IMG/VR virus record: IMGVR_UViG_3300047650_000023
Source: a virus
Reading direction: 5' to 3' (one strand)
Length of the DNA: 64,000 bases
A program made the translations under genes and the position numbers. Under the pieces are notes generated by a model. That model was not told where the DNA came from, did no database searches, and saw only the letters and a program-made list of their open reading frames with translations. This document shows, in pieces, positions 2,068-50,692 of this stretch. The stretch's first letter is position 1. Each line of letters starts with the position of its first letter.

Positions 2068-2099
2068 TAAATTAAATAAATGATTTAAGGATTGATTAA

Positions 2100-2261: not shown

Positions 2262-2263
2262 TC

Positions 2264-2288: not shown

Positions 2289-2294
2289 TTTAAA

Positions 2295-4380: not shown

Positions 4381-4478
4381 ATCCCAATCAATCCGTAATT
4401 TGATAGTATTATTCCCTATTCAAACATTAAATTAATTAAACAATATTAAAAACAATTAATTAAAAAAGGAGGCGATTT

Positions 4479-6344: not shown

Positions 6345-6364
6345 GAGAAAGAAGGAAATCAACT

Positions 6365-9512: not shown

Positions 9513-12500
9513 ATGATATATATTCCTATAAATCTTTCGTCAAATATATCAATGAATACTAATTTACCTATTGATTCTCGTTTCGTATTTCCTGATTTAG
9601 TTTCAAGAGATAATCTTAATATGTCTTTTCGATATATAGGTTTAAAATCATATGTAGTGTCTGAAAGTAGATTTTATTCTTTGAATTCCGATTTAGAAAC
9701 TTGGACGGCTGATGTTAATACTACAGATTTAAATACTAAGGTAGATAAAATAACAGGATATAGTTTGTCCGAGAACGACTTCAGCAATCAGTATAAATCA
9801 GATATAGATAATCTATCCACTGTGGCAACTTCTGGTCTGTACAGTGATTTAATCGAAACACCTCAAATTCCGAACAAAATAAGCCAATTAACAAATGATA
9901 CTAATTTTGCTATAGATAGTAATTATATACATACTGATAATAATTTTACAAGTCTTGAAAAGAATAAATTAGATAATCTTGCAACTGTTGCAAGTTCTGG
10001 TAATTATAATGATCTTCAGAATTTACCCACAATTAGTAATGGTGATGTAAATAGTGTTAATAATCAAACGGCTGATACAAGTGGAAATGTAGTTTTAACT
10101 ACTGCTAATATTAATGATTCCGTAGACAAACGATATATAACTGATACTGAAAAATCAATTATAAATGCAATATCAGGTATAAATACAGGAGATGAAACAC
10201 AATCTAGCATTGAATCAAAACTTGGCACAGCTTCATCTACTACAAATGGTTATCTAACTGAATCTGATTGGAATACATTTAATAATAAACAAACGGATTT
10301 AGGTTTTATACCTGAAAATATAATTAATAAAGATATTGCAAATGGGTATGCAGGATTAGATGTTAATAAAAAACTTATTGAGATGCCAACAGCAAGTGAT
10401 GTTGGTGCAGATGCGAGTGGAACTGCTACAAATGCCGTTTATATACATAATAACGATGTAAATGCTCATTCTGCTCTTTTTGAAAATAAAGTTGACAAGG
10501 TTAATGGTAAGGGGTTGTCAACCGTTGATTTTACAGATACAAACTATGTGCATACAGATAATAATTATACAACAACCGAAAAAGATAAATTAGCAGGAAT
10601 TGCAAATGGTGCAGAAGTTAATGTAAATGCAGATTGGAATGCTACAAGCGGAGAATCGCAAATACTTAATAAACCAACAAGTACAGCAACAGAAATTGAT
10701 ACTGCCGTAAGCGAAGCACATACTCATACTAATAAAAATGTTCTTGATGAATTATCTGATAATAGTGGTTTCTTAAATTATGATGGAAATCCAATTGGTG
10801 TTCAACCAGATTGGAATGAAAACGATAATAGTAAATTAGATTATATTAAAAATAAACCAAATTTAGCTACCGTTGCAACAAGTGGAAGTTATAATGATCT
10901 AATTAATAAACCTACAATTGTAGCAATTAATGATAGTGGTACTACAGGTGATATAACAGATACATATAGTGTAAATCAAATAATTACTCTTTTAGCAACA
11001 AAACAAGCATCTATTGTTATATCTTCAATAACACCATCATCTCCAACAACTAATTTAATTTGGATTGATACAACTCCACCATATACTTTACAAATTTATA
11101 ATGGAAGTTGGATTACTGTTGGTGGTACACAAATTAATTTTTGGACATCTGGAACAAACTATATTGTTGGAACACTTATTATTTATTCTAATGCTTTATA
11201 TATCTGTTCTAGCACTAATTCCAACACAACATGGAATCCAAATAATTGGACATTAATTGGTGCAAGTAGTTCAGCTCCTATATTTCCTGATTGGATTAGT
11301 GGTGGAAATTATATTCAATTTCAAATTATTGCTTATAATTCATTTTTATATCGTTTAAATAGAGATGCACCTAATTCAACTATTAGTCCTACGGCAGATA
11401 CATCATCTTATTGGTTTACTTTACTTGATAACTATTCTTATAAAGCAAATACATCGGACGTTAATTCTGCTTTAGCATTAAAGGCAGATAAAGTTATTGG
11501 AAGCACAGTTGGTGATATTGCAACACTTGATGTAAATGGAAATCTTGTTGATAGTGGAAGTAGTGTATCAACAATAAATTCAAATATAAGTACATTACAA
11601 ACTAATAGTGGTAGAATACAAATAAATAGTTCTGATACTTTTGATTACATAGGAAATAAAATTGATGGAACAACAATTCAAATTTTAACTAATAAAATTG
11701 TCGCTACAACTCTGAATGGATTAACAGCAACTATTACAGAATTAAATTATGTTCATGGCGCAGCATCAAGTCTACAGTCACAAATAAATGCGTTAGGTGC
11801 TGCTTTTCAGTTAAAAGGTAGTATTGCTACACATGCATTATTGATAGCCATTTCTTCACCTTCTGTTGGCGCTGCATATATTGTAAATTCAGATGAGTCT
11901 CAAAGTGGTTCACCTCAGGATTGGTATGTTTATACAAGTTCAGGTTGGGTGTTGATGGGTGTTACATCTATTACGGTTAGAAATTTTACAAGTAACCCTA
12001 TAAATTTAACAAGCGAAGTAACTGGAATTTTACCACAAGCTAATATGAATCTTGTTGGAATAGCTACTACCGCAAATTTAGCAACAAAGACTCAAATCAA
12101 TGATTCAGAAACATCTTCAAGTGTCGACACTTTTTCGATAACAAAATTAATGTCTTTGTTTAATGCAAAACAAAATAAAATAACGTTTGCTACAACTGAT
12201 CCAACTTCACCATCTATATATGATTTATGGGGAAACACTACAACTGATCCTGCTATTTTAAATTTTTATAATGGTTCTATATGGAAACAAATCGGAGGAA
12301 ATAGTGGAACAATCAGTAATTGGATTGCTTCAACTTCTTATAGTATAGGTCAACTTGTTATTTACAATGCTCAAATATACCAAACAAAAATTGCTAATTC
12401 GGATTCAGTTTTTAATTCTCTAAATTGGATAAATTTATCTTCTAACGCATCCATAACTTTCGCTGGTGATATAGCCGGAACTAATACTTCTCAAACAGTA

Positions 12501-16033: not shown

Positions 16034-16093
16034 ACAAAAATAATTGACAATTAAAATCTACTAAAATAAAAATGAAAGTTGGATTTGAAATGT

Positions 16094-17530
16094 ATGGGAA
16101 AAGTTAAAAGCAAAATAAGAGTATCATTTATAGGACAGAATGCCGAAGATGTAACTGGGTCTTGTATTCATATTAAAACAGAAACAAAACAATTACTTTT
16201 AGAATGTGGTTTGCATCAAAGTTGTGGAACTTTATTAAACGATTACAAAATAAATAGTGAAAAGTTTAAATTTAAAGTCAAGGACATTGATTACATTTTT
16301 GCAAATCACATTCATATTGATCATATTGGGAAAATTCCTAAACTATATGCAGAAGGATGTACGGCAAGAATTATTGCTCCTATGGGAACTTATGAACTAG
16401 CAAAAATATTATTAGAAGATTGTGCTTTTATTATGAACAAAGATGTTGAAAGCATTAAAAGAAAAACAGGAAAAGAATACCAACCTATTTATACAAAAGA
16501 TGATGTGAACACTTGTTTACAATATTGGGATGAATATAATATTGGAGATCTAACTAATTTAGGAGACAATGGAGAATCTATTGCTTTTTGCTGGCAACCA
16601 TCTGGTCATATTTTAAACTCAGCACAATTGGAATTGTACTTGGGACAGAATGGAAATACCAAAAAAATCGTTTACTCAAGTGATATTGGTTCAAATACGA
16701 TTCCTAAATATTATGTAAATGAATTTAAGCCTGTTGTTAAATCAAACTTACACATTGTAGAATGCACGTACTCAAATCAAGTTAGAAACATTACATTAAA
16801 AGATAGAGAAAAAGACTTAGAGAAGATAAAAAGTATTGTTGAAACAACTTGTATTGATAATAATGCAAAAGTGTTGTTTCCTGTTTTTGCAAATGATAGG
16901 CTTCAAAATATGTTAACTTATTTATATGATATTTTTGGAGAAGATGAAAGTTTTACTATACCAATATTAATAGATTCTCCGTTAGGAATAAAGATTTCTA
17001 AATTATATTTGCAATTACTTGAAGGTGAGCAACTAGAAAAATATAAAAAAGTGTTTACGTGGAAGAATATTAAGTTTATTCAAGATTATGAAATAAGTAA
17101 ATATAATCAAAATCTAAAAGAGCCACAAATCATATTGGCGGCATCAGGAATGCTTGCTGCTGGGAGAGCTGTAACATGGGTTTCAAAATTGTTACCTAAT
17201 GATAGAAATCATATAATTTTTTGTGGATATTCTCCCGCAAATTCTCTAGCAGGGAAGATTAAAGAAGGTAAGAAAAAGACTTTAACTATTGATGGTAAGT
17301 TAATTGCAAACAGATGTGGAATTACTTCACTACAGTCATTTAGCAGTCATATGCAAAGAATTGAATTATTAAAATATTATAGTGAATTGCAAACGGAAAA
17401 AGTAGCTTTAGTCCACAGCGACATGCAATCAAAAATTCAATTTAGTAGAGAATTACAAGAGGAAGTAAGTAAAAAGAATCGCAATTATAAGATTGTGGCT
17501 GTTAATAAATCTACTGAATTGCTTCTTTAA
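16094..17530 (+). CDS. metallo-beta-lactamase / beta-CASP nuclease (CPSF73/YSH1-like)
   Basis: VTGSC, HIHIDHIG (HxHxDH), SGHILNS, SDIG, VECTY, AASGML, FSSH, LVH. Confidence 0.9.
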   Translation: MGKVKSKIRVSFIGQNAEDVTGSCIHIKTETKQLLLECGLHQSCGTLLNDYKINSEKFKFKVKDIDYIFANHIHIDHIGKIPKLYAEGCTARIIAPMGTYELAKILLEDCAFIMNKDVESIKRKTGKEYQPIYTKDDVNTCLQYWDEYNIGDLTNLGDNGESIAFCWQPSGHILNSAQLELYLGQNGNTKKIVYSSDIGSNTIPKYYVNEFKPVVKSNLHIVECTYSNQVRNITLKDREKDLEKIKSIVETTCIDNNAKVLFPVFANDRLQNMLTYLYDIFGEDESFTIPILIDSPLGIKISKLYLQLLEGEQLEKYKKVFTWKNIKFIQDYEISKYNQNLKEPQIILAASGMLAAGRAVTWVSKLLPNDRNHIIFCGYSPANSLAGKIKEGKKKTLTIDGKLIANRCGITSLQSFSSHMQRIELLKYYSELQTEKVALVHSDMQSKIQFSRELQEEVSKKNRNYKIVAVNKSTELLL

Positions 17531-26329: not shown

Positions 26330-29300
26330 TATCATTTGAACAATTCGCTTCAATTATCGGTGTCGTTTCAGAAAAAACAAGACTTTCGGGCGATACTTTG
26401 GCTAATTCCCTAAAAATGATCATGGCTCGTGTCGATCAAATAAAATCAGCACAAGATGCTACCGGAAGCACTGCGACAGATTCCAGTAACGCTGCAAAGG
26501 CTTTACAGTCAATCGGCGTGAGTGTGCTTGATGCGAATGGTCAACTTCGCAATATGCAGGATATTTTAGGTGATGTTGCCACAAAATGGGACACATTATC
26601 ATCAACAGAAAAATCATATATTTCATATATGGCAGCCGGAACTCGCCAATATTCAACCTTTGAAAGTCTCATTATGTCGTTTTCCAAGAGTCAGGATTTA
26701 GCAACACAGGCAACATATTCTAATGGCGAAGCACTCAAGGCACAATCTGTTTATTTAGAATCTACATCTGCAAAAATCAAAGAATTTCAAACTTCCGTAG
26801 CAATCATGTGGGATAATGCTATTTCATCTAATACTTTAGGTGATGTAGTACAATTTGCCAATCTTCTCGTTGACCACATTGTACCCACACTCGGTACAAT
26901 CCTCGGTTTAGTAATTGCTTTGAATAGTGCATCAATGGTCAATGGATTAGTCAAAATGGCAACTAATATTTCAACTGCATTTCAAAATGTGGGTAAAACT
27001 ATTAGTGGAACATTTACTAATGCTAATATAGACTCATACACAAATGCATTACAAAAATTAAAAGATGCACAAACAGCCTCAACAGTGGCACAAGAAACAG
27101 CTAATATTGCTCAACAAGACGCTACAGCAAAAGCCTATGCTTTACAAATGGCACAGAATGCCTTATCAACAAGTGAAGAAGATACTAATTTTGTTTCAGA
27201 ACAACAAATTGCTGTAACAGTAGCACAAGCCGCCGCGGATAACGCAGCAACAGAAGCAACAAATGCTGAGACTGCGGCAATTGAAGCACAAAAGGTCGCA
27301 TCTGCGGCATTAACCACTGTATTTACAGGATTTCTAGGAGTTATAGGGTTAATAGTTACAGCTGTAAGCATTGGTGGAAGTATAATAAGCGGTGTTAATC
27401 AAGTAACACAAGCAGCGGCGCGAGCAGCAACGGACGCAGCAACATCATATCAACAAGAATCAGACTCTCTTTCATCTTTAATTAGCCAATATGACCAAAT
27501 TGGCTCTAAAGTAAATCAGTCAGCCAACGATAAACAAACGCTTACTGGTATTCAACAAAGTCTTATAAGTAGCTATGGTGACGAAGCTAAATCCATAAAT
27601 CTTTTAAATGATTCATATGACACGTCAATACAAAAATTACAAGCATTGTCTAAAGCAGAAGCAGATAATTATTTAATACAAAATAAAAAATCTGTTGATA
27701 CAAGCGAAGATGAAGCAAATAATCCCACAACAAATTATTTTAGTCCTAGTATGTCTAAATCATCATATGCAGGAGCAGATTATAAAGAAAATTTAGGTGG
27801 TATTTTTGATAACGTAAGTAATGTTGATGTTGTAACTCGTGGTGATAGTAATAATTTAGTTGATCAAGTGGCTATTACAGGCGCACTTAATGAACGTGTA
27901 GCTGCTATGAAACAAATTCTTGAAAACGGAGATGAACTAGAACAAAAAACAGGTACTCAAACTAAAGAAGAAAAAGATTTTCTTGAAAGTATAAGTACCG
28001 AATACACTAAACTTCTAGCAGTACAGAAAACGGCACAAGAAAATGCTTCTATTAAACTTGCTTCAACTAATTCTACTGACATAGCTAATCTCAATGAACT
28101 TGCAACTGCGTATCAAAATGCTGTGAAATCTGGTAATACTTCTGACATAGATAAAGCACAAAAAAGTTTTGATGATCTTGCTACAAGTGTAAATAACGCA
28201 TTAAAAAAATCACCTGAATTAAAGGCAGTATGGGATGCTTTAGTTAATAGTTTGGGAGTAGGTGAAACATCCACTAAAAAAGCCACAACCTCTGCATCAG
28301 ATTCAATTCCAGTATATGATGCAATGGGTAATGCCTTAAATGATGCAGCGCAAGCGGCAGATTCCGCAGCAGGTAGTAGCAATACTATGGCTGATCAAAT
28401 TAAAAACGCTACATCTGCCGTATCTGATTTAAATGGTGCTTTACAAACAGTTCAAAGTGGACAATCACTAGATGCAACTACAGTAATGGGTTTAATTCAA
28501 ACATATCCTCAATTAATATCTGCTGTTAAACAAACTAAAGATGGATATACAATTGAAGCATCAGCTTTACAAACATTAATAAATGCTAAAAAAACTGAAG
28601 CAGAAACAGGTATCCAATCTGAAATAAGTAATGCTACTGCTACTATTAATGCAATAAATACACGTATTAAAGGATATAATGACGAAGAAAAAGCTATTCA
28701 ATCATTATCAAATGCACAACAATTACTTGCATTAAATAATTTAAAAAAAATGAATGGTGAGCAAATACTTTCTAATTTTGGTTCAATGGCTGCTTATGAG
28801 CAAGAAATAAAAAATCTTCAAACAGTTATAAATGATAGTGCCTCTGCTACAGCTAGTAAAGCAAATTTAGCAAATTTAAATGCACAATTAGCGAATATGA
28901 AGAAGTTGTTAAATGATATTGGTACATCGTCTGATACAAAAAGTACAGCTTCTGGTTCATCCTCTTCAACAACAGCTAAAGACGCATTTTCAACCAACCT
29001 TCAAAATATAGAAGATTCTGCCACCAACGGAAATATAACTTCACAACAGGAACTTCAGCAATTACAAACGCTTAAGCAACAGACAACTACTTCCGCAGAA
29101 AAGCTTGAAATTGATAAGCAAATAAAAACAGTAGCAACAGCAATAGCAGAAGGTGCATATCAAGACCAAGAAACACAAATTTCACATCTTAATGCAATGG
29201 GACAACTTTCTGATCAACAGTTGTTAAGTGAATATCAAACAGCTTTAAAACTCGCTACAACTACAGCGGAGTATGAAAAAGAGCAAGAAAATGTACTTGC

Positions 29301-31092
29301 TACTCAGAATAAAATAAATGAAGATGCTGTTACAGCCATACAGACCAAAGAAGCATATCAGAAATCTATGGGAACTCTCACAGATGCCCAACAAATTGCT
29401 GATGACAAAGAAGTAGTTACTTTATATCAGCAAGACTTAGCAGTAGCGCAAAAAAATAAAGATTTAACTGATGCATTAAAATACACAGACGAACTTAATA
29501 CTGCTAATGAAACTCTTCATTCAGACCAAAATTCACAAAATAGTGATGCTATAACTGCTCAACAGAATCAAGAATCTTATTTAAAGAGTATGGGGCAACT
29601 CACTTCAGACCAAGAAATTATCACAGATAAACTTATAGATAACGAACTTCAAAAAGCATATGCTTTAGCAGTACAGAATAAAGATTTAACAACACAAGGA
29701 ATTTTGTTAGGTCAAATTCAGCAAGAAAATGAAGCAATATATACAGCACAAAATGCTACTGCTTCTAATATTTCCTCAATCGTTTCTGATACATCTGATT
29801 ATGGCACACTCACGGATAGTCAGATGCAAACACTTATTCAGGATGAAACAGCTGTAGCTAACAATGGTGCTAATGCTACAGAAAATTTAAATAATTATAC
29901 AACACAACTTCAACAAGCTAATGAGGCGGCAGAACAACAAAAGCTACTAACAGCGGTGCAAGTTGGTGCTTTACAAGATCAAGAAACAGCATTAGAAAAT
30001 GCTAATACAGCTCGACAAGCGGCTAATACACTTCTTCAAGACCAAAATAACTTGCTTTTAGCACAACAGCAATTAGCAGAAGATATCGCTAATAAAAACG
30101 TACAAGTTATAGAGAATGGCAAATGGGTAAATGTTTCTGATGCAACCACGGTAGCTTCGGATACAACTGCTGTTAATAATGCTCAAAATTCATTAAATAA
30201 TGATACTACTTCACAAGCATTTGATGATCAAAAAACAGCACTTGAAAATCAAATTGCTGTACTTAATGGCACAACTTCAGCAGAAGCAACAGCTATACAG
30301 AATGTAGTTAATTTCAATCAACAAGAGGCAAACACAACAGCAGTTGATGCTTATACTAAACTTATGCAAAGTCAAGGTGAGTATGTTTCAACTAATGCTG
30401 GAAATATTTCAGATGCCAATACAAATACACAAACGTTAGCAACTACACAATCTAGTACAGTAACCACACAAGCTGTTGGTGGTTTTACTACATTAGTAGA
30501 TACTCAAGGAACAGCATTTCAAAATTTAGCTACTCAAATAGAAACTGCCACAACTAAATTGCAAGCATTACAAGTACAAGAAGCAAAAGGGACATCTGGT
30601 ACAACTGCATCTACAGCAACCACATCTGCAACTACTACCAGTAAATCTTCTGTTACTACAGTACCTGCACATTCTCAAGGTGGTGTTACTTCATCAGGAG
30701 TAAATTTATTTGGTGAAGGAAATTCTCCAGAAGCTATAATTTCTTCTAATGGCACTTCAGCACAAATTGTTACTGCACCCACATTACTAAATGTACAAGG
30801 TGGAGAACAAGTCATACCATTGAATCAATCAAGTTCTAATTGGGTAAGTGCGAGTTCTCTAATAAGTAGTTTAGCTAGTGGTAGTGGAAGTGGTTCTAGT
30901 TTGTATAGTAATAACGTTACTCCTAATATAACACCTTACAGTATGAATCCAAATAATATTGTGAGCAATACTAGTAATTCCACAACAGGTGGAGATACGA
31001 TTTATCAATTTAGTGGTGACATCAATGTAACAAGTACAAATCCCAAGAATTGGGTTCAAGATTTTAACAGAAATATAAGTACAAAAATTTAA
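26330..31092 (+). CDS. tape measure protein, exon 3 (spliced product 1884 aa)
   Basis: (L)SFEQFASIIGVVSEKTRLSGDTLANSLKMIMARV. Long Ala/Gln/Thr helical region. C-terminal HSQGG..GEGNSPEAII motif. Confidence 0.9.
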
Positions 31093-33598: not shown

Positions 33599-35122
33599 TT
33601 GGCAACATATTTTAATAAAATAACAACTGATTATTTAAATGCAATAGAAAGTCCTATTGTTCAAGGAATTTTTCGTGTTGATCTCCTAAATTCATCAGAC
33701 GAGTCATTTTATAAAACAATTACAAATAGTGCTGTAAATAACAATGGAACTTTAACTACAAACTGGAATAATGGTTTACGAAGGACATTCACTTTAGACC
33801 TCGTAAATGAGGATAATTCATATCTTTTTAATCCAAATAGTAACACTGGATTATGGTTAGATTCAAAAATGAAGGTCTATAATGGCATACAAGTTAATGA
33901 TGATCAATATTATTTTTCTCAAGGAGTTTTTCTCTTAAATGCACCAGCAGTAATATCACAGTTTAGTGACAGACGTATTACAATAAATGGAAGTGACAAG
34001 TACTGTTTACTGGATGGTTCTAATGGTGCAGGATATTTATCACAAGACACGGAGATACCGTTAGGTACTATTTTTTATGAAGCGATCAAATTAATCTTAC
34101 AATTATCAAACGATCCTATTTCTCCAGTAATTTCAGAAACATATTTTAATCAAGTTATTCCTTGCAATATAATTGTCAACGCAGGAGGGAAAATTTCTGA
34201 TCTACTTGACCAAGTGTGTCAGTGTTTTTCTTGTAATTATGGATACTCAACGGACGGAATACTGACGATCAGCGATGGGAGTCAGGATTTAGACGATTCA
34301 CTCAAACCATCTGAATTTGACTTTTCAACGATCAGTAATGTATATGGTGGTACAAATAGTTCTGGAAATGTATTTAACACAAGTCAAATTTATAATATTG
34401 TGAGTGTCATTGGAAACAATGTAAATGGGCAGACCACATCTACGGCAATAGTGGCTTCACATATAATTACATATAACCTTTCAAATATTGTGGGATATTT
34501 TGATCCAACAAATGGAGAATTAATTTCAAATTTTATTTTAGGCGGTACAAACGTATCTGACTTAGGTCATATTACAAGTATTGCGTTATTAAATTCTAAT
34601 TCAACGGCACAAATCACAATCAGTGGAACAATTGGTGCAATAACACAAAACTATACTATCGCACCATTACAGGCTGCTTTAGGAACAGGATATACAGCAC
34701 CCACAGCGATACAAATTAATGTGTTTGAAAATCCCGAAGATGCTACAACGATAACAACAAATGGTATTACTGCTTCAGCTATTGCAACAAATGATGATCT
34801 TACCAGTCCATTATGTGTACAACGAATTGGAGAGAGAGTAGCTCCATTAGTACAAGACCAAAACATATCCACAAATGCTTTAGCACAGCAACGTGCGGCA
34901 TATGAGTTGAAAAAGTATACTATAGCACAGACTACCTTTAACTTCACATCAAGTTTTGTACCACACTTACAAGAAAATCAGGTCGTGACGATTTCTGATC
35001 CTTTTTTAGATTATAGTCAGCAAAGAGTCTTACTTACACAGATACAATTCGACCTTAACACTGCAGGAAATGTTACATATCAAGGAAGTAATACTAACGA
35101 ATTAGATTTTTCAATAACGTAA
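33599..35122 (+). CDS. baseplate hub/Tal-like tail protein
   Basis: WNNGLRRTFTLDL, YYFSQGVFLL, IYNIVSVIG, AQQRAAYELK motifs typical of hub proteins. Confidence 0.7.
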   Translation: MATYFNKITTDYLNAIESPIVQGIFRVDLLNSSDESFYKTITNSAVNNNGTLTTNWNNGLRRTFTLDLVNEDNSYLFNPNSNTGLWLDSKMKVYNGIQVNDDQYYFSQGVFLLNAPAVISQFSDRRITINGSDKYCLLDGSNGAGYLSQDTEIPLGTIFYEAIKLILQLSNDPISPVISETYFNQVIPCNIIVNAGGKISDLLDQVCQCFSCNYGYSTDGILTISDGSQDLDDSLKPSEFDFSTISNVYGGTNSSGNVFNTSQIYNIVSVIGNNVNGQTTSTAIVASHIITYNLSNIVGYFDPTNGELISNFILGGTNVSDLGHITSIALLNSNSTAQITISGTIGAITQNYTIAPLQAALGTGYTAPTAIQINVFENPEDATTITTNGITASAIATNDDLTSPLCVQRIGERVAPLVQDQNISTNALAQQRAAYELKKYTIAQTTFNFTSSFVPHLQENQVVTISDPFLDYSQQRVLLTQIQFDLNTAGNVTYQGSNTNELDFSIT

Positions 35123-35178
35123 GTTAGATAAATAAATTAAATTATTATTAACGAGCAAATAATATTAAAGGAATTGAA

Positions 35179-35526
35179 GTGATACATAAAAATATGGATT
35201 TAACTAAATTAAATCAGCTTGATGAGTCAATGAGTTTAGCAGATCAAAAAACGCTTTTATTAACTATTCAGAAGATAGTCCGAGAAGAAATAAACAATGC
35301 TCCTAACATATTGCGAGGATATCCTGCAATTGTAGTGGCTGTTAATAACAATGGATTGAGTATAGATGTTCAACGAGTTGGTAGCACAGTAACACTTCAT
35401 GGGTTTAAAAATCCATATAAGTTTACATTAATTGTTGGTCAATTGGTTTATTTGTGTGCGTTGAATTGTAGTTCAAACAATAATAGTGGAAATCTAACAA
35501 ATGCTTTTATACTTGTAAAACCATAA
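35179..35526 (+). CDS. small OB-fold spike-like tail protein
   Basis: PAIVVAVNNNG.SIDVQ...IVGQLVYL. Confidence 0.5.
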   Translation: MIHKNMDLTKLNQLDESMSLADQKTLLLTIQKIVREEINNAPNILRGYPAIVVAVNNNGLSIDVQRVGSTVTLHGFKNPYKFTLIVGQLVYLCALNCSSNNNSGNLTNAFILVKP

Positions 35527-35589
35527 ATATAAAAATAAAACAATCAAAAGATACAGCAAAAATTAAATATAGAAAGGAAAGGTGATTTA

Positions 35590-36660
35590 ATGTCAGAAAC
35601 AAAATATGATTTAATAACTACATACAGTGCTGATTATACTGAATATCAAACATTATTCAATTTATATTTAGCAGGTACAATATCAACTACTGGTGTATTA
35701 AGTTGGACATCTACATCAAGTGGAAATGTTTATTCGACTACTACTGGTGGACAAACAGCGGTAATGCAACAAATTAAATCAACAATTCATAACTATTTAT
35801 GGACTGCAAGCGATGCTAATTCGATTGCTTCATCTACGCAACTTGGTAATATTATGATCGGTAGTGGATTATCCATTGATAGTTATGGACATTTAAGTAC
35901 CAGTAATACGACTAATCCTAATTATGGAGTTGACACAGGAACAGTAAATACATATGTTATAACGTTTAATCCTGTACCTACATCTTATGTAGATGGTATG
36001 TTAGTTGCAATAAAAATATCACATACGAGTACAGGAGCATCAACATTAAATGTTAATGGACTTGGTGCTAAAACAATATCAGATAGTTATGGTAATGTAA
36101 TTGTTTCAGGGGAATTAATAGCAGGAATAATATATTCAATGCGCTATAACGCTACCACAGGGGATTTTATATTACAAAGTGGAGGAAGTAGTAATTCTGT
36201 ATTAAATCCAGTTTGGGATGCTATTAATTTAACTGTAGGTTCAGGGACACTTACAACAGACAGCCTTTGTTGGTTGGGTAGTAATATTCAATATACACAA
36301 CCCGCATCTAGTATGGCATTAGTTACAGTAGCAAGTGTTTCCTATAATTTACTTCGTTATGGTCAATATTCTGTTGGATTTAGACTTAAAAGCAGTAATA
36401 TAACATCTGCTACTGCTGTAACTACATTAAAAGTATTAAATAGTAGTGGAAATGTTGTAAATAGTGTTGGGATTTTAGGAACGAACTTTGCTATTGTGGG
36501 TGCAAATGTTTATAATACATTTTATTTACCGTTTAATAATTCAGGTCAATCTACTGGAAATGTATTTACATTTGAATTCACATCGGAGGCTGTTGCAAGT
36601 ACATTAATTGCAATAGATTCTATTATAGTTGCTCCTATGCAATTAGCACAATATGGATAA
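35590..36660 (+). CDS. tail fibre / receptor-binding protein
   Basis: STQLGNIMIGSGLSID, DTGTVNTY..DGMLVAIKI..STGASTLNVNGLGAK, C-terminal CBM-like beta sandwich. Confidence 0.7.
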   Translation: MSETKYDLITTYSADYTEYQTLFNLYLAGTISTTGVLSWTSTSSGNVYSTTTGGQTAVMQQIKSTIHNYLWTASDANSIASSTQLGNIMIGSGLSIDSYGHLSTSNTTNPNYGVDTGTVNTYVITFNPVPTSYVDGMLVAIKISHTSTGASTLNVNGLGAKTISDSYGNVIVSGELIAGIIYSMRYNATTGDFILQSGGSSNSVLNPVWDAINLTVGSGTLTTDSLCWLGSNIQYTQPASSMALVTVASVSYNLLRYGQYSVGFRLKSSNITSATAVTTLKVLNSSGNVVNSVGILGTNFAIVGANVYNTFYLPFNNSGQSTGNVFTFEFTSEAVASTLIAIDSIIVAPMQLAQYG

Positions 36661-36692
36661 TATTTAAATAAACTTAGATAGGAGAAAATATA

Positions 36693-38000
36693 TTGATACC
36701 TAAAAATGGATTATATTTATCATCTGCCGATTATGAATCGTGGCAAGATTATTTTAGTGGAATAGCAGATAAAGATTACATAAAACCAAGTTGTAATGGA
36801 TGCTGTTCTGACCCTGATTTGAAAGTCAAAAATATAACTTTTGTTGTTACTGAGAGGTGTAACCTTTGTTGCACCTACTGTTACGAGGTTCATAAATCTG
36901 GTGCGGTAATGAGTAAACAGGTTGCTAAAGATGCTGTTGATTTTCTTTTTAATAAAGAAAAAGTTAATGGTTATTATAGTGATGAAATTTCACCTGCTGT
37001 AATATTAGAGTTTATTGGTGGAGAACCATTACTTGAAATTGATTTGATTAATTATATAGTAGAATATTTTAAGTTTAAATCTTTTGAAGCAGGAAGTGCG
37101 TGGGCAACAAATTATGTAATTAGTATTACAACAAATGGTATTTTATACAAAAGAAAAAATGTTCAAGATTTTTTAAAACGTAATAAAGGACATATAAGTA
37201 TAGGTTTAACTATAGATGGGAATAAAGAGTTACATGATTCATGTCGAATTTTTCCTGATGGTAGTGGAAGTTATGATATAGTTGAATCAGCCGCAAAAGA
37301 GTGGATAAAATTTAATAATCATCCACAAACAAAAATAACTTTATCTCCGTATAATATTTCTTATGTTAATGATGCTTTAAAAAACGTATGGAATATCGGA
37401 ATAACAGGAGCATTTACTAATTGTGTTTATGAAGAAGGTTGGACAATAGAACATGCTAAAATATTTTATTCAGAATTAATTAAATTAGCAGATTATCTTT
37501 TAGAGAACGAAAATTATTCTAAATATTACACTTCTTTATTTGATGAATCTATAGGAAAACCACTTACAGAAGATAGAAACTGGTGTGGCGGCAATGGCAA
37601 AATGTTAGCTATAGGTACAGATGGTAGATGCTTTCCATGTATTAGATTTATGAAATATTCATTAAATACACCTAATCGTAAAGAAAAGTGTATAGGAAAT
37701 ATTTATAATGGTCTTGAAAGTAAAACTAAAAATGTATGGTTATGTGAGTTAAAAAAAGTAACAATGTCAAGTCAGTCAAATGATAAATGTAATAATTGTC
37801 AAATAGCTTCTGGATGTTCTTTATGTACTGGTTATAATTATGATAAATTTGGTACTCCGAATAAAAGAGCAACATTTATTTGTGATATGCATGTTGCCAG
37901 AGTAAAAGCTAATGTTTATTATTGGAATAGATTATATAAATTATTAGATATCAATAAAGTTTTTATAGATAATATTCCCATGAATTGTGAGGTGATATAA
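36693..38000 (+). CDS. radical SAM/SPASM peptide maturase (CXXX-repeat target type)
   Basis: CNLCCTYC (CxxxCxxC), EFIGGEPLLE, ITTNG, GLTIDG..HD. SPASM region WCGG..CFPC..IGNI..CNNCQIASGCSLC..FIC. Confidence 0.92.
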   Translation: MIPKNGLYLSSADYESWQDYFSGIADKDYIKPSCNGCCSDPDLKVKNITFVVTERCNLCCTYCYEVHKSGAVMSKQVAKDAVDFLFNKEKVNGYYSDEISPAVILEFIGGEPLLEIDLINYIVEYFKFKSFEAGSAWATNYVISITTNGILYKRKNVQDFLKRNKGHISIGLTIDGNKELHDSCRIFPDGSGSYDIVESAAKEWIKFNNHPQTKITLSPYNISYVNDALKNVWNIGITGAFTNCVYEEGWTIEHAKIFYSELIKLADYLLENENYSKYYTSLFDESIGKPLTEDRNWCGGNGKMLAIGTDGRCFPCIRFMKYSLNTPNRKEKCIGNIYNGLESKTKNVWLCELKKVTMSSQSNDKCNNCQIASGCSLCTGYNYDKFGTPNKRATFICDMHVARVKANVYYWNRLYKLLDINKVFIDNIPMNCEVI

Positions 38001-38001
38001 T

Positions 38002-38586
38002 ATGGCATGCACAAGTTGTGATGGTGTTTGTACTGGATGTACTGCTGGTTGTCAAGGAAGTTGTGAAAAAACTTGTAATGGTTGTAGCGGAGGTTGTACT
38101 GGATGTTATGGTTCTTGTACTGGTTCTTGTACTAATGGTTGTAATACTAGTTGTACTGGTAGTTGTAAAGGAAGTTGCAACAATGCTTGCACTGGTTCTT
38201 GTGGTAGTTGTACTGGTACTTGTACTGGATATTGCGACAATGCTTGTACATCAGTTAATTCAGCGCAAACTATAGCTAATTTAGGATTAAATATTTTACA
38301 AAAAGGTATTGTTACAAATAATGATTTTCTAGATTTAAAAACTGTATTACGTAATGAATTTAGTAGACGTAGTATGACATTGCCTATTAATGATACATAT
38401 TCAGTAACTCCGGCTAATGGTGTAACAATTTATAAAGAAGAAGCTACAAAAATATTTGGTGATATTAATCAGATGAATAGTGCATTAAATTATTCTATAA
38501 ATGCATCGAATGTTATTTTAACTAGTGACATGAATGCAACTATTGCATATATTCAAACATTAATGAGTCAAAGCATAAGATCATAA
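38002..38586 (+). CDS. Cys-rich CxxxC-repeat protein (putative rSAM substrate) fused to a ~110-aa non-Cys domain
   Basis: 22 Cys in residues 3-82 (16 CxxxC and 5 CxxC intervals). Starts 1 nt after the rSAM stop. Confidence 0.85.
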   Translation: MACTSCDGVCTGCTAGCQGSCEKTCNGCSGGCTGCYGSCTGSCTNGCNTSCTGSCKGSCNNACTGSCGSCTGTCTGYCDNACTSVNSAQTIANLGLNILQKGIVTNNDFLDLKTVLRNEFSRRSMTLPINDTYSVTPANGVTIYKEEATKIFGDINQMNSALNYSINASNVILTSDMNATIAYIQTLMSQSIRS

Positions 38587-38622
38587 TAAAGGTATAAATA
38601 AAAAAAATAAAGGAGTGTTTTT

Positions 38623-39075
38623 ATGGATACAAATCAAACTGCAATATTAGCGGCATTATTAGCATTAAGCAACGAGGTAATAGTTAACAATATAAGCGAT
38701 CCTGAAATTCAAACAAATATTACAAGTATAAATAGTATTACTGCAACAGATAGTTCTTTTGTGCAACTAATTATTGATAACATTCGTAATATGATTGATA
38801 TTTCAACAGCAAGTAATCAGCCTATTTTAACAACAATCATTAATGGTTTAACTTCTATTACTATAAATGCACCAGCATTATTAGGTGTTTTAACTATGCG
38901 TAATCTTAATAATCCTCAAAGTATTGCTAATTACATAGATTCTGAAATTATAAGTAATATTAATGATTTTAATTATTATAGTGCTTTATCAAGATTAGCA
39001 ATATCGTTAGGAGATTCTAAAAGAATATCAGCAGTTTTGACAAAAATACAATCATTAACGACATCAGGTAGTTAA
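38623..39075 (+). CDS. hypothetical helical protein in the rSAM cassette
   Basis: AAGGAG SD, tight junctions. Confidence 0.6.
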   Translation: MDTNQTAILAALLALSNEVIVNNISDPEIQTNITSINSITATDSSFVQLIIDNIRNMIDISTASNQPILTTIINGLTSITINAPALLGVLTMRNLNNPQSIANYIDSEIISNINDFNYYSALSRLAISLGDSKRISAVLTKIQSLTTSGS

Positions 39076-39076
39076 T

Positions 39077-39475
39077 ATGGAGAAAATAGAATCAGAAAAG
39101 TTATTACAAGTGATAACAGAATTAATTGAAGATCAAAGAATTTTCATTGATTTTCCAATAGAAATATCTAATAAATTAGAATTATTGCAACTAAAAATTA
39201 ACTCATCTGAGTTGTTATTTACTGCTTACATTAATAATACTTCAGAATTAGCAAATGAATTTAATCTTGAAAAGTTTTTAACTTTTTATGCTAATTTAAC
39301 TAATGAAAAAGATTTTTTATTTAAAGATACTGCATTATCTATTATAGGAACAGAAATTTATAATTATTGTTTAGAGCAATCTAACAGAATTATATTTTTC
39401 TTAGATAATGATCTTAAAAAATTAATATTTAGGAAATTACCAAAGATAAATGAAGTATCTAATATATCTATATAA
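39077..39475 (+). CDS. hypothetical helical protein, possible maturation-system accessory
   Basis: 1-nt junction with previous gene. Amphipathic helices. Confidence 0.55.
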   Translation: MEKIESEKLLQVITELIEDQRIFIDFPIEISNKLELLQLKINSSELLFTAYINNTSELANEFNLEKFLTFYANLTNEKDFLFKDTALSIIGTEIYNYCLEQSNRIIFFLDNDLKKLIFRKLPKINEVSNISI

Positions 39476-39499
39476 TATCTATATAAAACATAATGGGAA

Positions 39500-39940
39500 G
39501 TGATGAAATTTATGAAAAGAATTTTAAAACATATTAGTCATTCGATAATATTGTTCACAGTTTTGGGACTAATTTACTATTTTTTAGAAGTCATATACAG
39601 GGGACATTCTCATTGGGAAATGCTTATAATTGGCGGTTTATGTGGGCTTAGTCTTTCATACCTAAATTCCTTTCTGTCGTGGAAAATGCCATTAGTAATT
39701 CAAGCTGTCCTTGGCATGTTAATTTGTTTGATTATAGAATTTACGAGTGGCTGTATTTGTAACCTCGCATTAAATTTAAATTTATGGAACTACAATGGCT
39801 TACCTTTTAACTTACTTGGACAGATACAATTATACTATGCTGGGATGTGGTATGTGCTTTCTATCGTAGGCATTATTTTGGATGATCATTTAAGACATTG
39901 GTTATTTGGTGAACCTATGGGAAAGTACATAATATTCTAA
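39500..39940 (+). CDS. multi-TM protein of 'putative ABC-transporter type IV' family
   Basis: LEVIYRGHSHWEM..GG, IEFTSGCICN..LWNY..LPFNLLGQI. Confidence 0.75.
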   Translation: MMKFMKRILKHISHSIILFTVLGLIYYFLEVIYRGHSHWEMLIIGGLCGLSLSYLNSFLSWKMPLVIQAVLGMLICLIIEFTSGCICNLALNLNLWNYNGLPFNLLGQIQLYYAGMWYVLSIVGIILDDHLRHWLFGEPMGKYIIF

Positions 39941-40089
39941 AATATAATAGAATGATGGTTTGATGGGGACTATTGGAGATTATATCTCTTGTTTTCTCTA
40001 TAATGCTTTAGTATGCTCTGTTTTAAATGTGAACAAAATATGAATAAAATTAGGAAATCAGAAACAAATTAAATATTTTAATGTAATTG

Positions 40090-40118
40090 AGAGAATCTAT
40101 TAATTTAGGTTCTCTTTT
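40090..40118 (+). terminator. intrinsic terminator ending tail/rSAM transcript
   Basis: AGAGAATCTA/TAGGTTCTCT + T-run. Confidence 0.65.
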
Positions 40119-40234
40119 ATTATATGTAAGGAACGTCTTGTATGTAGACAAGCTACATACGCTTTTGCTTATGCCTGAAGGCAACGCAACACTATAAATA
40201 TGAAATAAATAAGAATGTATACGAAGGTGAATAA

Positions 40235-44408: not shown

Positions 44409-44456
44409 GGTTACTATAATGTACCTGCCACTGGTGCCATATCGGCTAAAGTAACC
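44409..44456. mobile_element. putative attP of the serine integrase (48 bp, central TG at 44432-33)
   Basis: GGTTACT/AGTAACC terminal IR symmetric about CAC-TG-GTG. Core ACCTGCCACTGGTGCCAT encodes TCHWCH. Overlaps integrase stop. Gene strands converge here. Confidence 0.75.
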
Positions 44457-45960
44457 TTTTATAGACAATTTCTAATATGGTTTCGGTTTCGTTACATATC
44501 CAAATAATTTTATTAACTATAGATTTATATAATTGATTCCTTTTTTGGGGTGTATCTGCTAAAGATATATCATTAACAAACTTTTTTAAATTGTTAATAT
44601 CTTCTTCGTAATTATAATTTGACGTAGCTTTTAATTGAATATTTAGATCATTGATTTCTTTCCTAATCAACTTAATTTTTTTGTTCCATTTTTCTTTTCT
44701 TAATCTCCATTCTTCTTTATTATAATCTCCTATTTCATACATTTCATTAACTTTATCAAGAGCTTTTAAATATTTATCGAGTTCATTTGTCTTACTTAAT
44801 ATATTATCTTGAATAATTTTAATATCTTCTGTATTATCAAAATTATTTTGCAAAGAATAAATGCTTAAATATTGTTTAACTTTATTTATCACTAATTCTT
44901 CTAATGTTTTTTCCATAATTCCTTTGTTAATGCACTTATTTCCGTATGGATCTTTAAACCAACATGGTTTCATTAATACATTACCATTTGGTTTAGTAAG
45001 AAAACTATGGGTATGACCACATCTTCCACACTTTATTAAGCCACTAAAAGCAAATACTGATTGTTTTGTTCTTGATGGCATTTTATTATTATCTAATATT
45101 AATTTAAGAATTTTATCATGTTCAGATTGCGTTTTTACTGGATCATGGCAATTTTCAATAATAATCCATTGGTCTTTTGAATTTTTATGAAGTTGTTTAG
45201 CGTTAGGTTTTTTTGTTTTATGACCATCTCCAATAGATTTATTACTTATTATTTTTCCTAAATGAGTTTCGTCTACCAATAATCTGGAAACAGTCAAGTT
45301 ATTCCATTTCATATGTCTTGGAGATAAAATATTTTGATTATTAAGAATGTTAGATATTTGAGTTGTTGAATTTCCAGATATATATAATTCTATGATTTGT
45401 CTATAAACTTTAAGTTTTTCATCATTAATAACAAGTCCTTTTTCATTATATTTATCTTTGTATTTTTCATATTCATATGGATATGGTGGTGTTCCATTAG
45501 TCCAATTACCTCGTCTTGATCCAACCATTTTACCTTGTTTAAATCTTTTAGAAATCATTTTATATTCTTGTCGCGCAAATAACCCCTTAAAATCAGCATA
45601 TGTATCATCTAAATCATTATTTAGATCATATACTTTTTCAGGGGTTATTATTAAAGTATTAGATTTTTGAAATGCTTTTTTAATTCTATCTTGTTCTCCT
45701 AAGTCACCACGTCCCAAACGATCATAATCAACGCTACATACAGCATCATATACCCCTGCTTCAACATCTTTTAATAATTGTGTCATTTTTGGACGCATAT
45801 CAATACTATCTGAAGTTCCCACTTCTGCGTATTCTACATATTTAAAATTATTTTTAGTACATAAATCTGTTAAAATAGTTCTATGTTTCATTAAATCATC
45901 TTCATTATCTGCACGAGATTTTCTAATATATAAAGCTACAAATTTAACGTTATATTCCAT
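44446..45960 (-). CDS. large serine recombinase (phage integrase)
   Basis: YIRKSR (nucleophile Ser), DRLGR, GTPPYPY, zinc ribbon CGRCG..C..C, coiled coil. ATG 45960 follows AAGGA SD. Confidence 0.92.
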   Translation of the reverse strand: MEYNVKFVALYIRKSRADNEDDLMKHRTILTDLCTKNNFKYVEYAEVGTSDSIDMRPKMTQLLKDVEAGVYDAVCSVDYDRLGRGDLGEQDRIKKAFQKSNTLIITPEKVYDLNNDLDDTYADFKGLFARQEYKMISKRFKQGKMVGSRRGNWTNGTPPYPYEYEKYKDKYNEKGLVINDEKLKVYRQIIELYISGNSTTQISNILNNQNILSPRHMKWNNLTVSRLLVDETHLGKIISNKSIGDGHKTKKPNAKQLHKNSKDQWIIIENCHDPVKTQSEHDKILKLILDNNKMPSRTKQSVFAFSGLIKCGRCGHTHSFLTKPNGNVLMKPCWFKDPYGNKCINKGIMEKTLEELVINKVKQYLSIYSLQNNFDNTEDIKIIQDNILSKTNELDKYLKALDKVNEMYEIGDYNKEEWRLRKEKWNKKIKLIRKEINDLNIQLKATSNYNYEEDINNLKKFVNDISLADTPQKRNQLYKSIVNKIIWICNETETILEIVYKRLL

Positions 45961-45993
45961 ATTATTTAACATCCTTATTATTAGTATGGTTCT

Positions 45994-47985: not shown

Positions 47986-48461
47986 AGAATTACCTCACTT
48001 TGTTTTAAACTCTCATTTACATTAATTATACGTTGATTAGATGAACCTTTGAATTTCAGTGATGTATCTTTTAACTTTTCAATAAATTCACCATCAACAA
48101 GAACATCAATATATTTAAGCATTTCATGATTTTTTATATCTTCAAATTTAAATCCTGTATATGCCCAAATTGTTTTAGTTGGTGATTTACTTTTAATTTG
48201 TTTAAGAAATTCAATCAATTCATCTTCTGAATATAATGGATCACCGCCACTAAGAGTAATTCCATCAATTAAAGAATCTGTGTTTATATAATTAATAATA
48301 TAATCCTGCATTTCTTTGTTAAATGGTTTTCCATAATTAAAATTAGATAATCTTTGGTTATGACAATTAAAACAGTTATGTTTACAACCACTAATAAAAA
48401 GAACTGTTCTTATACCAATACCATCATTTAAACTTTCATGAATTATTCCACCAATATTCAA
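47973..48461 (-). CDS. nrdG: anaerobic RNR activase
   Basis: DGIGIRTVLFISGCKHNCFNCHN, GITLSGGDPL, DVLVDGEF, FKGSSNQR. Confidence 0.95.
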   Translation of the reverse strand: MNIGGIIHESLNDGIGIRTVLFISGCKHNCFNCHNQRLSNFNYGKPFNKEMQDYIINYINTDSLIDGITLSGGDPLYSEDELIEFLKQIKSKSPTKTIWAYTGFKFEDIKNHEMLKYIDVLVDGEFIEKLKDTSLKFKGSSNQRIINVNESLKQSEVILWNN

Positions 48462-50692
48462 TTATTATCACCACCAAAATCTACTGTGAAATTATGATCA
48501 ACTCTATCAACTACTTCTGCTTGTTTGCCTTCATTGAAGTTAGATACATCAGAACTAAGATATCCAGTAACTCTAGCTATGCGCCAAATTTTTTGACTAT
48601 GGCAAATAGGACAATTATTTTCTATTTCACCTTGATATCCACAATCCAAACAAATATCACTTGGAAAATTAATAGCACCATATGGAATACCCAATTCCAT
48701 CATTCTATCAATAATTTTTTCTACTCCATCTTGATTATTATTTAGTTTACTATCAAGTTCAAGATATGTAATACAACCCGCCGTTTCATATTGAGTAAAT
48801 GGTGCTTCAAGTTCAAGTTTTTGTTCCATAGAAACCTTTTCCCAAACTGGAACATGGCTTGAGTTTGTTAAATATTTTTTATCTGTTACAAATGGAATTG
48901 AACCATATTCTTTTTTTAGTTTCTCAACTGATGTTTTACAAAGATTTTCTGCTGGAGTAGCATATGTAGAAAAATTGAGATTATATTTTTCAGAAGATGC
49001 TTTTGCATAATCATAAACATGTTTTACAACAGATAAGGCAAAGTTATATACTTTTTTATCATGTACAAAATTTGTACCAAATAAAGCTTGACACATTTCA
49101 GCAATACCAATAAATCCAAATCCTAATGTTCCATGTTTCATTGCATTATAAACATTATCTTCACATTTATCATAATCAGCAATAGTACCATTATCATACA
49201 TAAATGGAGCAGATTTTAAAGATTGATTACAAATATAACTAAATCTATTCAATAAAGATTCTCTTGTTATATCAAGAATATTATCAAGTGCCTTCCAAAA
49301 TCCTTCTATATCTGGTGTTTTACGTTTACCTTGACAGATACCATACTCAATACCAATCTTAGGAAGTATAATTGTTGTAGGACAAATATTTCCTCTTCCT
49401 ACTTGTTTATATCCTAATCCATGTCTATCAAATCCAAGTTGAGTTCTACATCCCATAGTGGCTTTAATTGTATCAATATCATCAGGATTTTCTAGATGGG
49501 TAGGTGAATCACAATTAACCCAATTAGGATAAAATCTTTTTGTCATAGATTGAATTGCAAGTTTTTTTAGATAATAATTTGGTGTTCCTTCTTTATCATT
49601 TATACCTTTTTTATATTGAAATATGGCAATTGGGAAAATACTAGTTTTATGTACTTTACCAATACCATCAATAGATGCTTTCAATAGCCACTCTGTTACT
49701 AACTGTCCTTCTTTGCTTGTATCTCGTCCATAATTTATTGAAGTGAATGGAACTTGTGCGCCAGCTCTTGATTCAAGTGTATTAAGATTATGATAAAGTG
49801 CTTGCGCTCCTTGCATACCTTCTCTATAAGTCATATCATAAGCATATTGATAAACCGATTCATACGCTTTTGCATTTTCACTGTTTAATGAAATATCAAA
49901 TCCATTATTAATAGTTTCTTGAATCAATTCATCTGTATAATGAGATATATATTTCATACCATCTTTATAATGTTTAACGAATGATTTTTTTACGTATGGT
50001 GCGATATCATAATCTATATGGGCTGAAGCCACACCACCAAATTGAACTTGTGATTGAATTTGAAATATAACAGCTATAAGTTGAAAAGCTGTTGCTATAG
50101 AATTAGCACCTCTTACATCACCATTTCTTGTAGAAAATCCTTCTTTTAGAAGTTTGCCTACATCAGCAAAAAGACAGTTATGAGAACCAATTGCATATTT
50201 ATCAAAATCATGAATATATATATAACCATCTTCAAAAGCTTTTTTTACCGATTCTGTCAATAGATTATCTTTTGCATATTGTTTATGTAATTCTGAACCA
50301 ACTCTATTTTCCCTACCAGAAAAAGAATATTGGTCAATATTTGCATTATTGTTATCAATATTACTACAAGAAATTATATCATGTGTTTTCTGATAAAGTT
50401 CTTTGTTTAAGTTTCTTACCCTAGTGCGTTCTTGTCGATACGTAATATACTCTTTAGCAACATCCTTACGGCTACTTGCCATAAGTTTATCTTCTACAAT
50501 ATCTTGAATAGATTCTACTGAAATCTTTTTAATATTTGAATCTTCAATTGTATGTGCAATTTTATTTGAAATGCTTAATGCAATTTCACGATTTATTCCA
50601 TTGTCTGTTCGCTCCATTGCTTTAATAATTGCATCAGTTATTTTCGTTCTATTAAATTCTACTTTTCTACCATCACGCTTAGTGACTTCCAT
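48458..50692 (-). CDS. nrdD: class III ribonucleotide reductase with ATP cone, intron-free
   Basis: VTKRDGR ATP cone, YIHD, HNC, MGCRT, TPAE, CLDC/CPIC Zn site, RVTGYL glycyl-radical motif. Confidence 0.96.
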   Translation of the reverse strand: MEVTKRDGRKVEFNRTKITDAIIKAMERTDNGINREIALSISNKIAHTIEDSNIKKISVESIQDIVEDKLMASSRKDVAKEYITYRQERTRVRNLNKELYQKTHDIISCSNIDNNNANIDQYSFSGRENRVGSELHKQYAKDNLLTESVKKAFEDGYIYIHDFDKYAIGSHNCLFADVGKLLKEGFSTRNGDVRGANSIATAFQLIAVIFQIQSQVQFGGVASAHIDYDIAPYVKKSFVKHYKDGMKYISHYTDELIQETINNGFDISLNSENAKAYESVYQYAYDMTYREGMQGAQALYHNLNTLESRAGAQVPFTSINYGRDTSKEGQLVTEWLLKASIDGIGKVHKTSIFPIAIFQYKKGINDKEGTPNYYLKKLAIQSMTKRFYPNWVNCDSPTHLENPDDIDTIKATMGCRTQLGFDRHGLGYKQVGRGNICPTTIILPKIGIEYGICQGKRKTPDIEGFWKALDNILDITRESLLNRFSYICNQSLKSAPFMYDNGTIADYDKCEDNVYNAMKHGTLGFGFIGIAEMCQALFGTNFVHDKKVYNFALSVVKHVYDYAKASSEKYNLNFSTYATPAENLCKTSVEKLKKEYGSIPFVTDKKYLTNSSHVPVWEKVSMEQKLELEAPFTQYETAGCITYLELDSKLNNNQDGVEKIIDRMMELGIPYGAINFPSDICLDCGYQGEIENNCPICHSQKIWRIARVTGYLSSDVSNFNEGKQAEVVDRVDHNFTVDFGGDNN

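Follow-up and report, generated by a model that had tools for sequence, protein, structure and literature searches.

The 64,000-nucleotide IMG/VR virus record IMGVR_UViG_3300047650_000023 (the whole stretch analysed, hereafter the window) carries, at positions 35590-39940, a run of tail-operon genes in which a radical S-adenosylmethionine (SAM)/SPASM enzyme adjoins a small protein built on a ladder of 22 cysteines. Our overall reading, to which we give an even chance, is that these genes form a phage-tail version of CXXX-repeat radical SAM maturation, in which the enzyme would staple the ladder of a fibre-associated tail component. An earlier inspection of the letters alone (the sequence-only reading) had proposed a modification system for a virion part at this place, and every open reading frame (ORF) that it had listed there was present in the order given. 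The genes and the signals that follow them are these:

35590..36660, + strand: fibre-like tail protein, 356 residues, immediately 5′ of the cassette (phrog_28171, 1.2e-24; phrog_4900 'tail protein', 9.8e-13, residues 107-222)
36693..38000, + strand: radical SAM/SPASM maturase, 435 residues, TTG start (TIGR04115)
38002..38586, + strand: Cys-ladder protein, 194 residues, with the ladder at 38002..38247 (residues 1-82) and a predicted helical domain at 38248..38586 (residues 83-194)
38623..39075, + strand: p150, 150 residues, accessory protein restricted to the domain-permuted subfamily described below
39077..39475, + strand: p132, 132 residues, member of the small accessory family acc1
39500..39940, + strand: multi-pass membrane protein, 146 residues (PF06541, 3.6e-8; phrog_20274, 3.4e-30; hydrophobic segments)
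40089-40116 and 40139-40161, + strand: two terminator-like hairpins, closing the tail and cassette transcription unit

The enzyme was assigned by searches with hidden Markov models. Against TIGR04115 ('radical SAM peptide maturase, CXXX-repeat target family'), whose curated cut-off is 350 bits, the 435-residue protein scored 408.8 bits (E = 2.4e-122), which bears out the maturase identity that the sequence-only reading had given it. The match spans residues 46-410 and profile positions 2-359 of 359, leaving 25 residues at the C terminus. The next-best families, maturases of thioether or Cys-rich peptides, all fell far under their cut-offs: PapB (NF047865) at 179.6 of 340 bits, CcpM at 108.9 of 500 and the SCIFF maturase (TIGR03974) at 103.6 of 425. 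The radical SAM motif CX3CX2C is formed by C56/C60/C63 (CNLCCTYC, residues 56-63), and a SPASM-type C-terminal cluster comprises Cys 298, 313, 316, 333, 351, 366, 369, 375, 378 and 397; the N terminus behind the TTG start is conserved among relatives. The nearest solved chain is CteB (5WGG, E = 3.4e-21), with the alignment beginning at CteB residue 94 and query residue 43. Ahead of the aligned part the enzyme has about 45 residues, compared with 93 in CteB that we take to be a peptide-recognition domain, or RRE (recognition element for peptides that are made on the ribosome and modified after translation, RiPPs). As judged from these alignments, the enzyme is a CXXX-repeat-family radical SAM/SPASM maturase with neither a fused RRE domain nor the TIGR04119 extension found in a non-phage relative.

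The Cys-ladder gene begins after a gap of one nucleotide. Its product holds 22 Cys in its first 82 residues, as the sequence-only reading had said; they stand at residues 3-82 (3, 6, 10 ... 82), with 16 spacings of four residues and five of three. The tract is made up nearly entirely of the residues C, G, T, S and N, at a density of 27% Cys, and the residues after 82 are Cys-free. Its DNA is partly a period-12 and period-57 repeat, which agrees with the differences in ladder length among relatives. Against the TIGR04114 repeat model the tract scored 19.1 bits, borderline under the cut-off of 20. This near miss, together with alternative-frame ORFs that overlap the tract, is what speaks for a coincidental pairing, in which the enzyme would have another substrate and the Cys-rich ORF would be a low-complexity artefact. 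We regard that as extremely improbable, and conservation data already contradict it. The ladder frame runs on into a domain conserved in 652 representative clusters, and a ribosome-binding site and the one-nucleotide junction stand ahead of the ladder ORF. Moreover, among 104 loci with enzyme relatives (68 viral and 36 genomic), in each of which ORFs were called, 93 have a same-strand Cys ladder at most 3 kb from the enzyme. We infer that the enzyme very likely modifies the ladder.

The Cys-ladder proteins called in these loci take three forms. In the first, represented by 78 ORFs, an N-terminal domain of ~105 residues precedes the ladder; in the second (37 ORFs, mostly a second gene next to one of the first form) the ladder stands alone; and in the third the ladder comes first and a domain of ~110 residues follows. 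Six scored ORFs have the third form, including those of the window, L004-L006 and L102, and the Desulfosporosinus locus L002/L071 and locus L003 have it as well, outside this count, as their ORF calls were missed or mis-started. A comparison by hhalign of the C-terminal-domain profile with the N-terminal-domain profile gave a probability of 97.8% (E = 1.3e-12) over 90 columns. Both positions of the domain have the motif LK-x3-[KR]-x-E-x2-RR ... Y-x3-P-x2-G-x2-I-x2-EH, and the junction between domain and ladder is marked by CDNAC-T-S in the permuted form and by S-C-R-G-x-C-T in the common one. In most members the homologue of its C-terminal domain stands at the N terminus, and the window protein is therefore a permuted form of the family architecture, not a core with a tail-tip domain joined to it. 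Two earlier statements change accordingly in standing. 'Leaderless' remains literally right, in that the ladder starts at residue 3, but the domain which most relatives carry in front is here placed behind. The suggested resemblance of the last ~110 residues to small tail-tip domains did not hold up: the AlphaFold2 model of the domain consists of five helices (pLDDT, the model's per-residue confidence, 78.9), nothing in the PDB or BFVD matches it, and its homology is to the N-terminal domain of CXXX-repeat proteins.

A word-indexed search with the C-terminal 112 residues returned two matches, the window's own protein and one Desulfosporosinus ORF, the latter being the mis-split C-terminal half of a 246-residue Cys-ladder protein. 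Searching 1.84 billion representatives with the domain profile gave 652 clusters at E <= 0.001, of which 376 reached E <= 1e-10; no Pfam family covers the domain. In nearly all of the best 150 of the 652 clusters, the proteins have 170-240 residues and begin with the domain (residues 1-~110); the permuted order is rare.

Over 83 distinct tracts, 74.5% of Cys spacings are four residues and 22.9% are three, and tracts hold from 22 to 126 Cys across the family. The largest ladders reach 522 residues with 126 Cys, and that of the window is the shortest among the domain-bearing forms listed. One protein, P0014, carries an extra domain of 177 residues N-terminal to the conserved domain and ladder; by BLASTP this extra domain has no similarity to the window's 356-residue fibre. 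Within one abundant group of gut phages, the ladder proteins (mean identities of 98.7% and 99.6%) are better conserved than the enzyme (94.7%), which argues for a defined structure and not a hypervariable tip; the acc1 protein of the same group has a mean identity of 91.9%.

The cassette and the tail genes of the window form one transcription unit. The gaps between the genes from 35590 to 39940 are 32, 1, 36, 1 and 24 nucleotides, a purine-rich ribosome-binding site precedes every start, and no + strand terminator-like site occurs from 31000 up to the first one at 40089; the junctions of 1-36 nucleotides and the absence of a terminator before ~40090 that had been read from the letters were thus confirmed. 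The 356-residue fibre-like protein at the head of the cassette has no Pfam or NCBIfam match, and homologues of it lie 5′ of the radical SAM gene in L003 and L071.

A synteny survey extended the linkage beyond the window. Tail genes, in clusters assigned to Baseplate_J, to Mu Gp48, to the N-terminal part of tail-collar fibres or to tail fibres, are present in at least 76 of the 104 loci, and PHROG scans of loci without a member of those clusters added five more (L004, L006, L079, L081 and L084). The tie to tail modules is general and not peculiar to the window's prophage, which supports the sequence-only reading. Among the permuted loci, the cassette follows a 2076-residue Tal-type protein in L004, lies between a 655-residue tail protein and a BppU/collagen/beta-helix spike in L006, follows a 229-residue tail-collar fibre stub of a Baseplate_J/Gp48 module in L005 and stands within a Baseplate_J/Gp48 module in L002/L071. 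These contexts indicate that the module moves across siphovirus-type and myovirus-type tails and stays among the distal tail genes. In L108, a 216-residue tail-collar stub, the ladder protein, the radical SAM enzyme and a 110-residue ORF are all that lies between Gp48 and the lysis genes, so that this phage is without a fibre of normal length unless the ladder protein provides one. Both this locus and the added domain of P0014 are relevant to a possible structural function.

The same position admits a different role. After a fibre gene is the usual site of tail-fibre assembly chaperones, as in P2-like and Mu-like modules, and the ladder product might accordingly be an assembly or metal-handling factor outside the virion, binding a metal or Fe-S cluster or serving as a chaperone or scaffold for fibre assembly, with either the ladder or something else as the target of the enzyme. 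A density of 27% Cys is like that of metal-binding proteins, and the radical SAM enzyme itself requires Fe-S clusters. Yet the strict spacing of three to four residues with Gly, Ser or Thr between the cysteines is the signature that the NCBIfam curators tied to the maturase, and a range of 22 to 126 Cys would be odd for a stoichiometric chaperone. We consider such a factor improbable.

Two small accessory proteins complete the cassette. In most phage cassettes a protein of 94-125 residues, acc1, is encoded immediately 5′ of the enzyme. The profile of p132 matched that of acc1 in hhalign (71%, E = 3.6e-5), and the joint alignment is coherent, with a C-terminal W-x-LDF hairpin common to both; on this alignment, p132 is assigned to the acc1 accessory family. 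Its AlphaFold2 model (pLDDT 92.2) has a single strand, a long hairpin of helices and a beta-hairpin. Closest among the Atlas clusters are viral proteins of 96-120 residues, with template modelling (TM) scores of 0.58-0.64 by query and 0.69-0.76 by match, whereas Foldseek and a further fold search against the PDB returned generic helical hairpins only. A role as a PqqD-like RRE, considered for p132, is unsupported by these fold searches. Complex prediction of p132 with the conserved domain gave a score of 0.00, which is no answer and is counted neither for nor against binding.

The other accessory protein, p150, is encoded directly 3′ of the ladder gene in the window, L003, L004, L071/L002, L005 and L006, that is, in every permuted locus examined; the L005 and L006 homologues were matched by hhalign (94.4%, E = 8.7e-8). 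NCBIfam, Pfam and PHROG scans gave no family match for p150, and its Atlas structure matches are weak, with TM below 0.5 and mostly to helical-repeat families. The enzymes of the permuted subfamily are 60-81% identical to that of the window and those of all other loci at most 49%. This identity and the recurrence of p150 indicate that p132 and p150 move as one set with the enzyme and the permuted substrate.

The membrane protein at 39500-39940 is less firmly attached. Its only homologue among the loci is in L050 (10079-10522), two genes 3′ of the radical SAM gene, in a locus otherwise distant from the window. Its membership is uncertain, and we do not count it as a core part of the cassette. 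The PF06541 ('ABC_trans_CmpB') protein has no ATPase partner among the ORFs at 33599-39940 and could be lysis-related or cassette-linked.

A sample of 400 genomes of the phylum, taken in addition to the centre genome, gave a single further genome, G310, with an enzyme over the TIGR04115 cut-off (locus L113, G310:C48, 9926-18302); this is a non-phage relative. This enzyme, of 725 residues, combines TIGR04115 with a TIGR04119 domain (236 bits). After it come a TIGR04116-like protein of 101 residues, two 75-residue precursors with a short leader and 12-13 Cys each, and two ABC export systems, one MacB/FtsX-type and one bacteriocin-type. By inspection the flanks appear to hold AraC-type regulators and ABC transporter genes, and the 20 kb read contained no recognisable phage genes. 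By contrast, neither the enzyme nor the other seven ORFs at 33599-39940 of the window matched TIGR04119, and neither p150 nor p132 matched TIGR04116 at E <= 0.01. No match to a peptidase or an ABC ATPase was found among the same eight ORFs, in keeping with the earlier remark that the cassette has no dedicated peptidase or exporter; L113 does have exporters. That the window is without the extra markers of L113 is the strongest reason to regard the phage cassettes as a separate branch whose product has a different fate. The 101-residue protein of L113 was compared with acc1/p132 as a possible homologue and rejected (hhalign 1%), as it matches TIGR04116 instead; the idea of p132 as a core component of both phage and non-phage systems was then dropped.

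L113 also gives weight to a second alternative, that the cassette is a phage-borne RiPP system in which the helical domain acts as a long follower (elsewhere a leader) for the maturase and the ladder is cleaved off and set free at lysis as a peptide with antimicrobial, signalling or host-modulating activity. The enzyme belongs to the superfamily of RiPP maturases, its family is also found, in L113, in a cluster of the classical RiPP type that has exporters and short precursors, the conserved junction motifs are possibly processing or recognition sites, and lysis would make an exporter needless. However, the window cassette has no recognisable peptidase; ladders that run to 200-500 residues and 60-126 Cys greatly exceed RiPP cores in size; the baseplate/fibre position is constant over tail types, away from the moron sites by lysis and lysogeny genes; and the ladder of P0014 is fused to a further domain. 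We judge a released peptide unlikely.

We return to a tail component that the enzyme would modify. Enzyme family membership, the pairing of enzyme and target, the homology of the permuted domain, the conservation of accessory proteins and the recurrent embedding among tail genes are established by sequence comparison, and the system suggests that the phage enzymatically staples a part of its tail. In the mechanism that we propose, the most likely substrate of the 435-residue enzyme is the 22-Cys ladder in the adjoining 194-residue protein, and p132 probably helps. By analogy with the nearest characterised relatives (PapB, CteB and CcpM), the enzyme would likely make thioether cross-links from Cys sulfurs to nearby residues, and these would turn a floppy Gly/Ser/Thr-rich tract into a covalently stapled rod. 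The helical domain may be a handle by which the ladder is brought to the enzyme, anchored on the tail fibre, or both. Most likely the product would be a fibre-associated tail component, made together with the late structural genes, and not an exported peptide; from gene context, we hold the case that it is a part of the virion to be about evenly balanced. The fuller proposition is that phages of anaerobes recruited a RiPP-type radical SAM enzyme to build a thioether-stapled, disulfide-free rigid tail filament or adhesin suited to anoxic surroundings, as a module portable between tail types and workable in either domain order. This we advance tentatively, at somewhat short of an even chance.

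Several observations weigh against this interpretation. Virion membership, thioether or metal chemistry, rigidity of a spike and substrate binding by the products of 38623 and 39077 are projected from synteny and family resemblance. The Cys-ladder protein has no tail match in Pfam, PHROG or NCBIfam, and the domain model, searched with Foldseek, has no PDB or BFVD match at E <= 0.001. When the Cys-ladder protein and two N-terminal domains were run by tblastn against 50,697 phage records, the only match was one uncultured gut phage, and no cultured phage with the conserved domain was found among them. A conserved domain of ~105 residues by a repeat core is also compatible with a long RiPP leader or follower, lysis could free a peptide in place of an exporter, and the neighbourhood of a fibre gene is a usual site of assembly chaperones too. 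A characterisation of the chemistry of TIGR04115 enzymes was not found in the literature.

Our literature searches found no paper combining 'CXXX repeat' with 'radical SAM', and the sole mention of TIGR04115 was in an unrelated paper on the pig microbiome. Titles and abstracts that connect SPASM or radical SAM enzymes to prophages, tail fibres or Cys-rich proteins gave nothing relevant to a phage-tail system. The kind of enzyme-target pair is itself known: the CXXX-repeat family has been curated in NCBIfam for years (TIGR04115, TIGR04114/TIGR04117, TIGR04116 and TIGR04119), although literature on its product or on a place in phage tails was not found. The window shares with that system an above-cut-off enzyme and an adjoining target with Cys at every third or fourth residue. 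It differs in that the TIGR04119 domain, a detectable TIGR04116 protein and ABC exporters, all present in L113, are missing; in that its p132 and p150 come from other families; and in that the cassette lies in a phage tail operon. Its target has 194 residues and a predicted folded domain of ~110 residues, compared with the 75-residue precursors of L113. What is new is the domain permutation, the subfamily-specific p150 and the contrast with the exporter-linked cluster.

Most phage cassettes, in which the N-terminal domain precedes the ladder, share the enzyme family, conserved domain, accessory family and tail context of the window. The window departs from them in its inverted domain order, in the extra p150 and in its tail, which is siphovirus-like, with a putative tape measure protein and no Baseplate_J/Gp48 match among the ORFs scanned. 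Among characterised enzymes, PapB- and CteB-type maturases form Cys-to-carbon thioethers in Cys-rich peptides. The window enzyme has the radical SAM/SPASM architecture of the PapB (freyrasin)/ranthipeptide maturases and of CteB/SCIFF, but it scores well under the PapB and SCIFF cut-offs and, unlike CteB, is without an N-terminal RRE domain. Its predicted substrate is a protein of 22 or more Cys with no obvious pattern of Asp, Glu or Thr acceptors, in contrast to the substrates of PapB and CteB. Two further systems are functional analogies. The T4-like gp38 adhesin, itself small and encoded separately, combines a domain for attachment with a Gly-rich repeat domain and caps a fibre tip. The chainmail of the HK97 capsid illustrates that covalent cross-links, there autocatalytic isopeptides, can harden a virion, whereas the window system would need a dedicated radical enzyme. 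The window protein has no sequence or fold relationship to either.

If the ladder is in the virion, RiPP chemistry would reach beyond small secreted peptides into the structural proteins of virus particles, phages of anaerobes would have a new way to harden or shape their receptor-binding organelles, and a virus particle protein would for the first time be seen to be cross-linked by an enzyme in a radical-SAM-dependent way. The permuted form implies that a recognition or docking domain functions on either side of the substrate tract, which would be useful for enzyme reconstitution or for engineering stapled repeats. The window offers a compact and experimentally convenient set for this: one enzyme with a substrate of 22 Cys and a pair of small accessory proteins.

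Around the cassette, the window has a low GC content of ~26-33% and a long + strand run of phage genes. The source is a prophage of an anaerobe, and the element looks like a temperate siphovirus-type phage. The remaining features are listed below:

26398-31092, + strand: putative tape measure protein, 1564-residue ORF, so called from its size, its position and a weak PhageMin_Tail match of the preceding ORF; it has no family match of its own
After the tape measure ORF: ORFs of 468 and 315 residues, then a 507-residue tail protein (phrog_1887), then an ORF of 115 residues
41936-42871: GH25 endolysin, preceded by small genes that follow the terminators
44446-45972, opposite (-) strand: large serine recombinase

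Early in the + strand block, a 1510-residue ORF (9513-14045) has Laminin_G_3 (concanavalin-like) and CBM_5_12 matches, and inside the phage-like region, at 16079-17530, lies a gene for a 483-residue beta-CASP/metallo-beta-lactamase RNase-like protein. Past the serine recombinase, at 48458-50692 on the - strand and at the flip in GC skew, is the anaerobic ribonucleotide reductase NrdD; this region belongs either to the host DNA or to a second arm of the element.

Some of the related loci show further arrangements. In L108 (8001-9005), a single ORF (P0023) fuses an acc1-like protein to the N-terminal domain and Cys ladder; it was seen in one contig only and may be a real Rosetta-stone fusion or reflect a lost stop codon. 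L050 has five consecutive Cys-ladder genes at 243-6653, encoding proteins of 100 to 968 residues with up to 104 Cys, 5′ of a radical SAM enzyme of 653 residues; the 968-residue protein continues for ~690 residues beyond its ladder, with phrog_6085 as the sole family match. In gut phage loci of the L014 type (for example L037, 12712-13989), there is a short way 3′ of the cassette, just past a 760-residue fibre-like protein, a reverse transcriptase (RVT_1, phrog_1423), and a diversity-generating retroelement may target that fibre.

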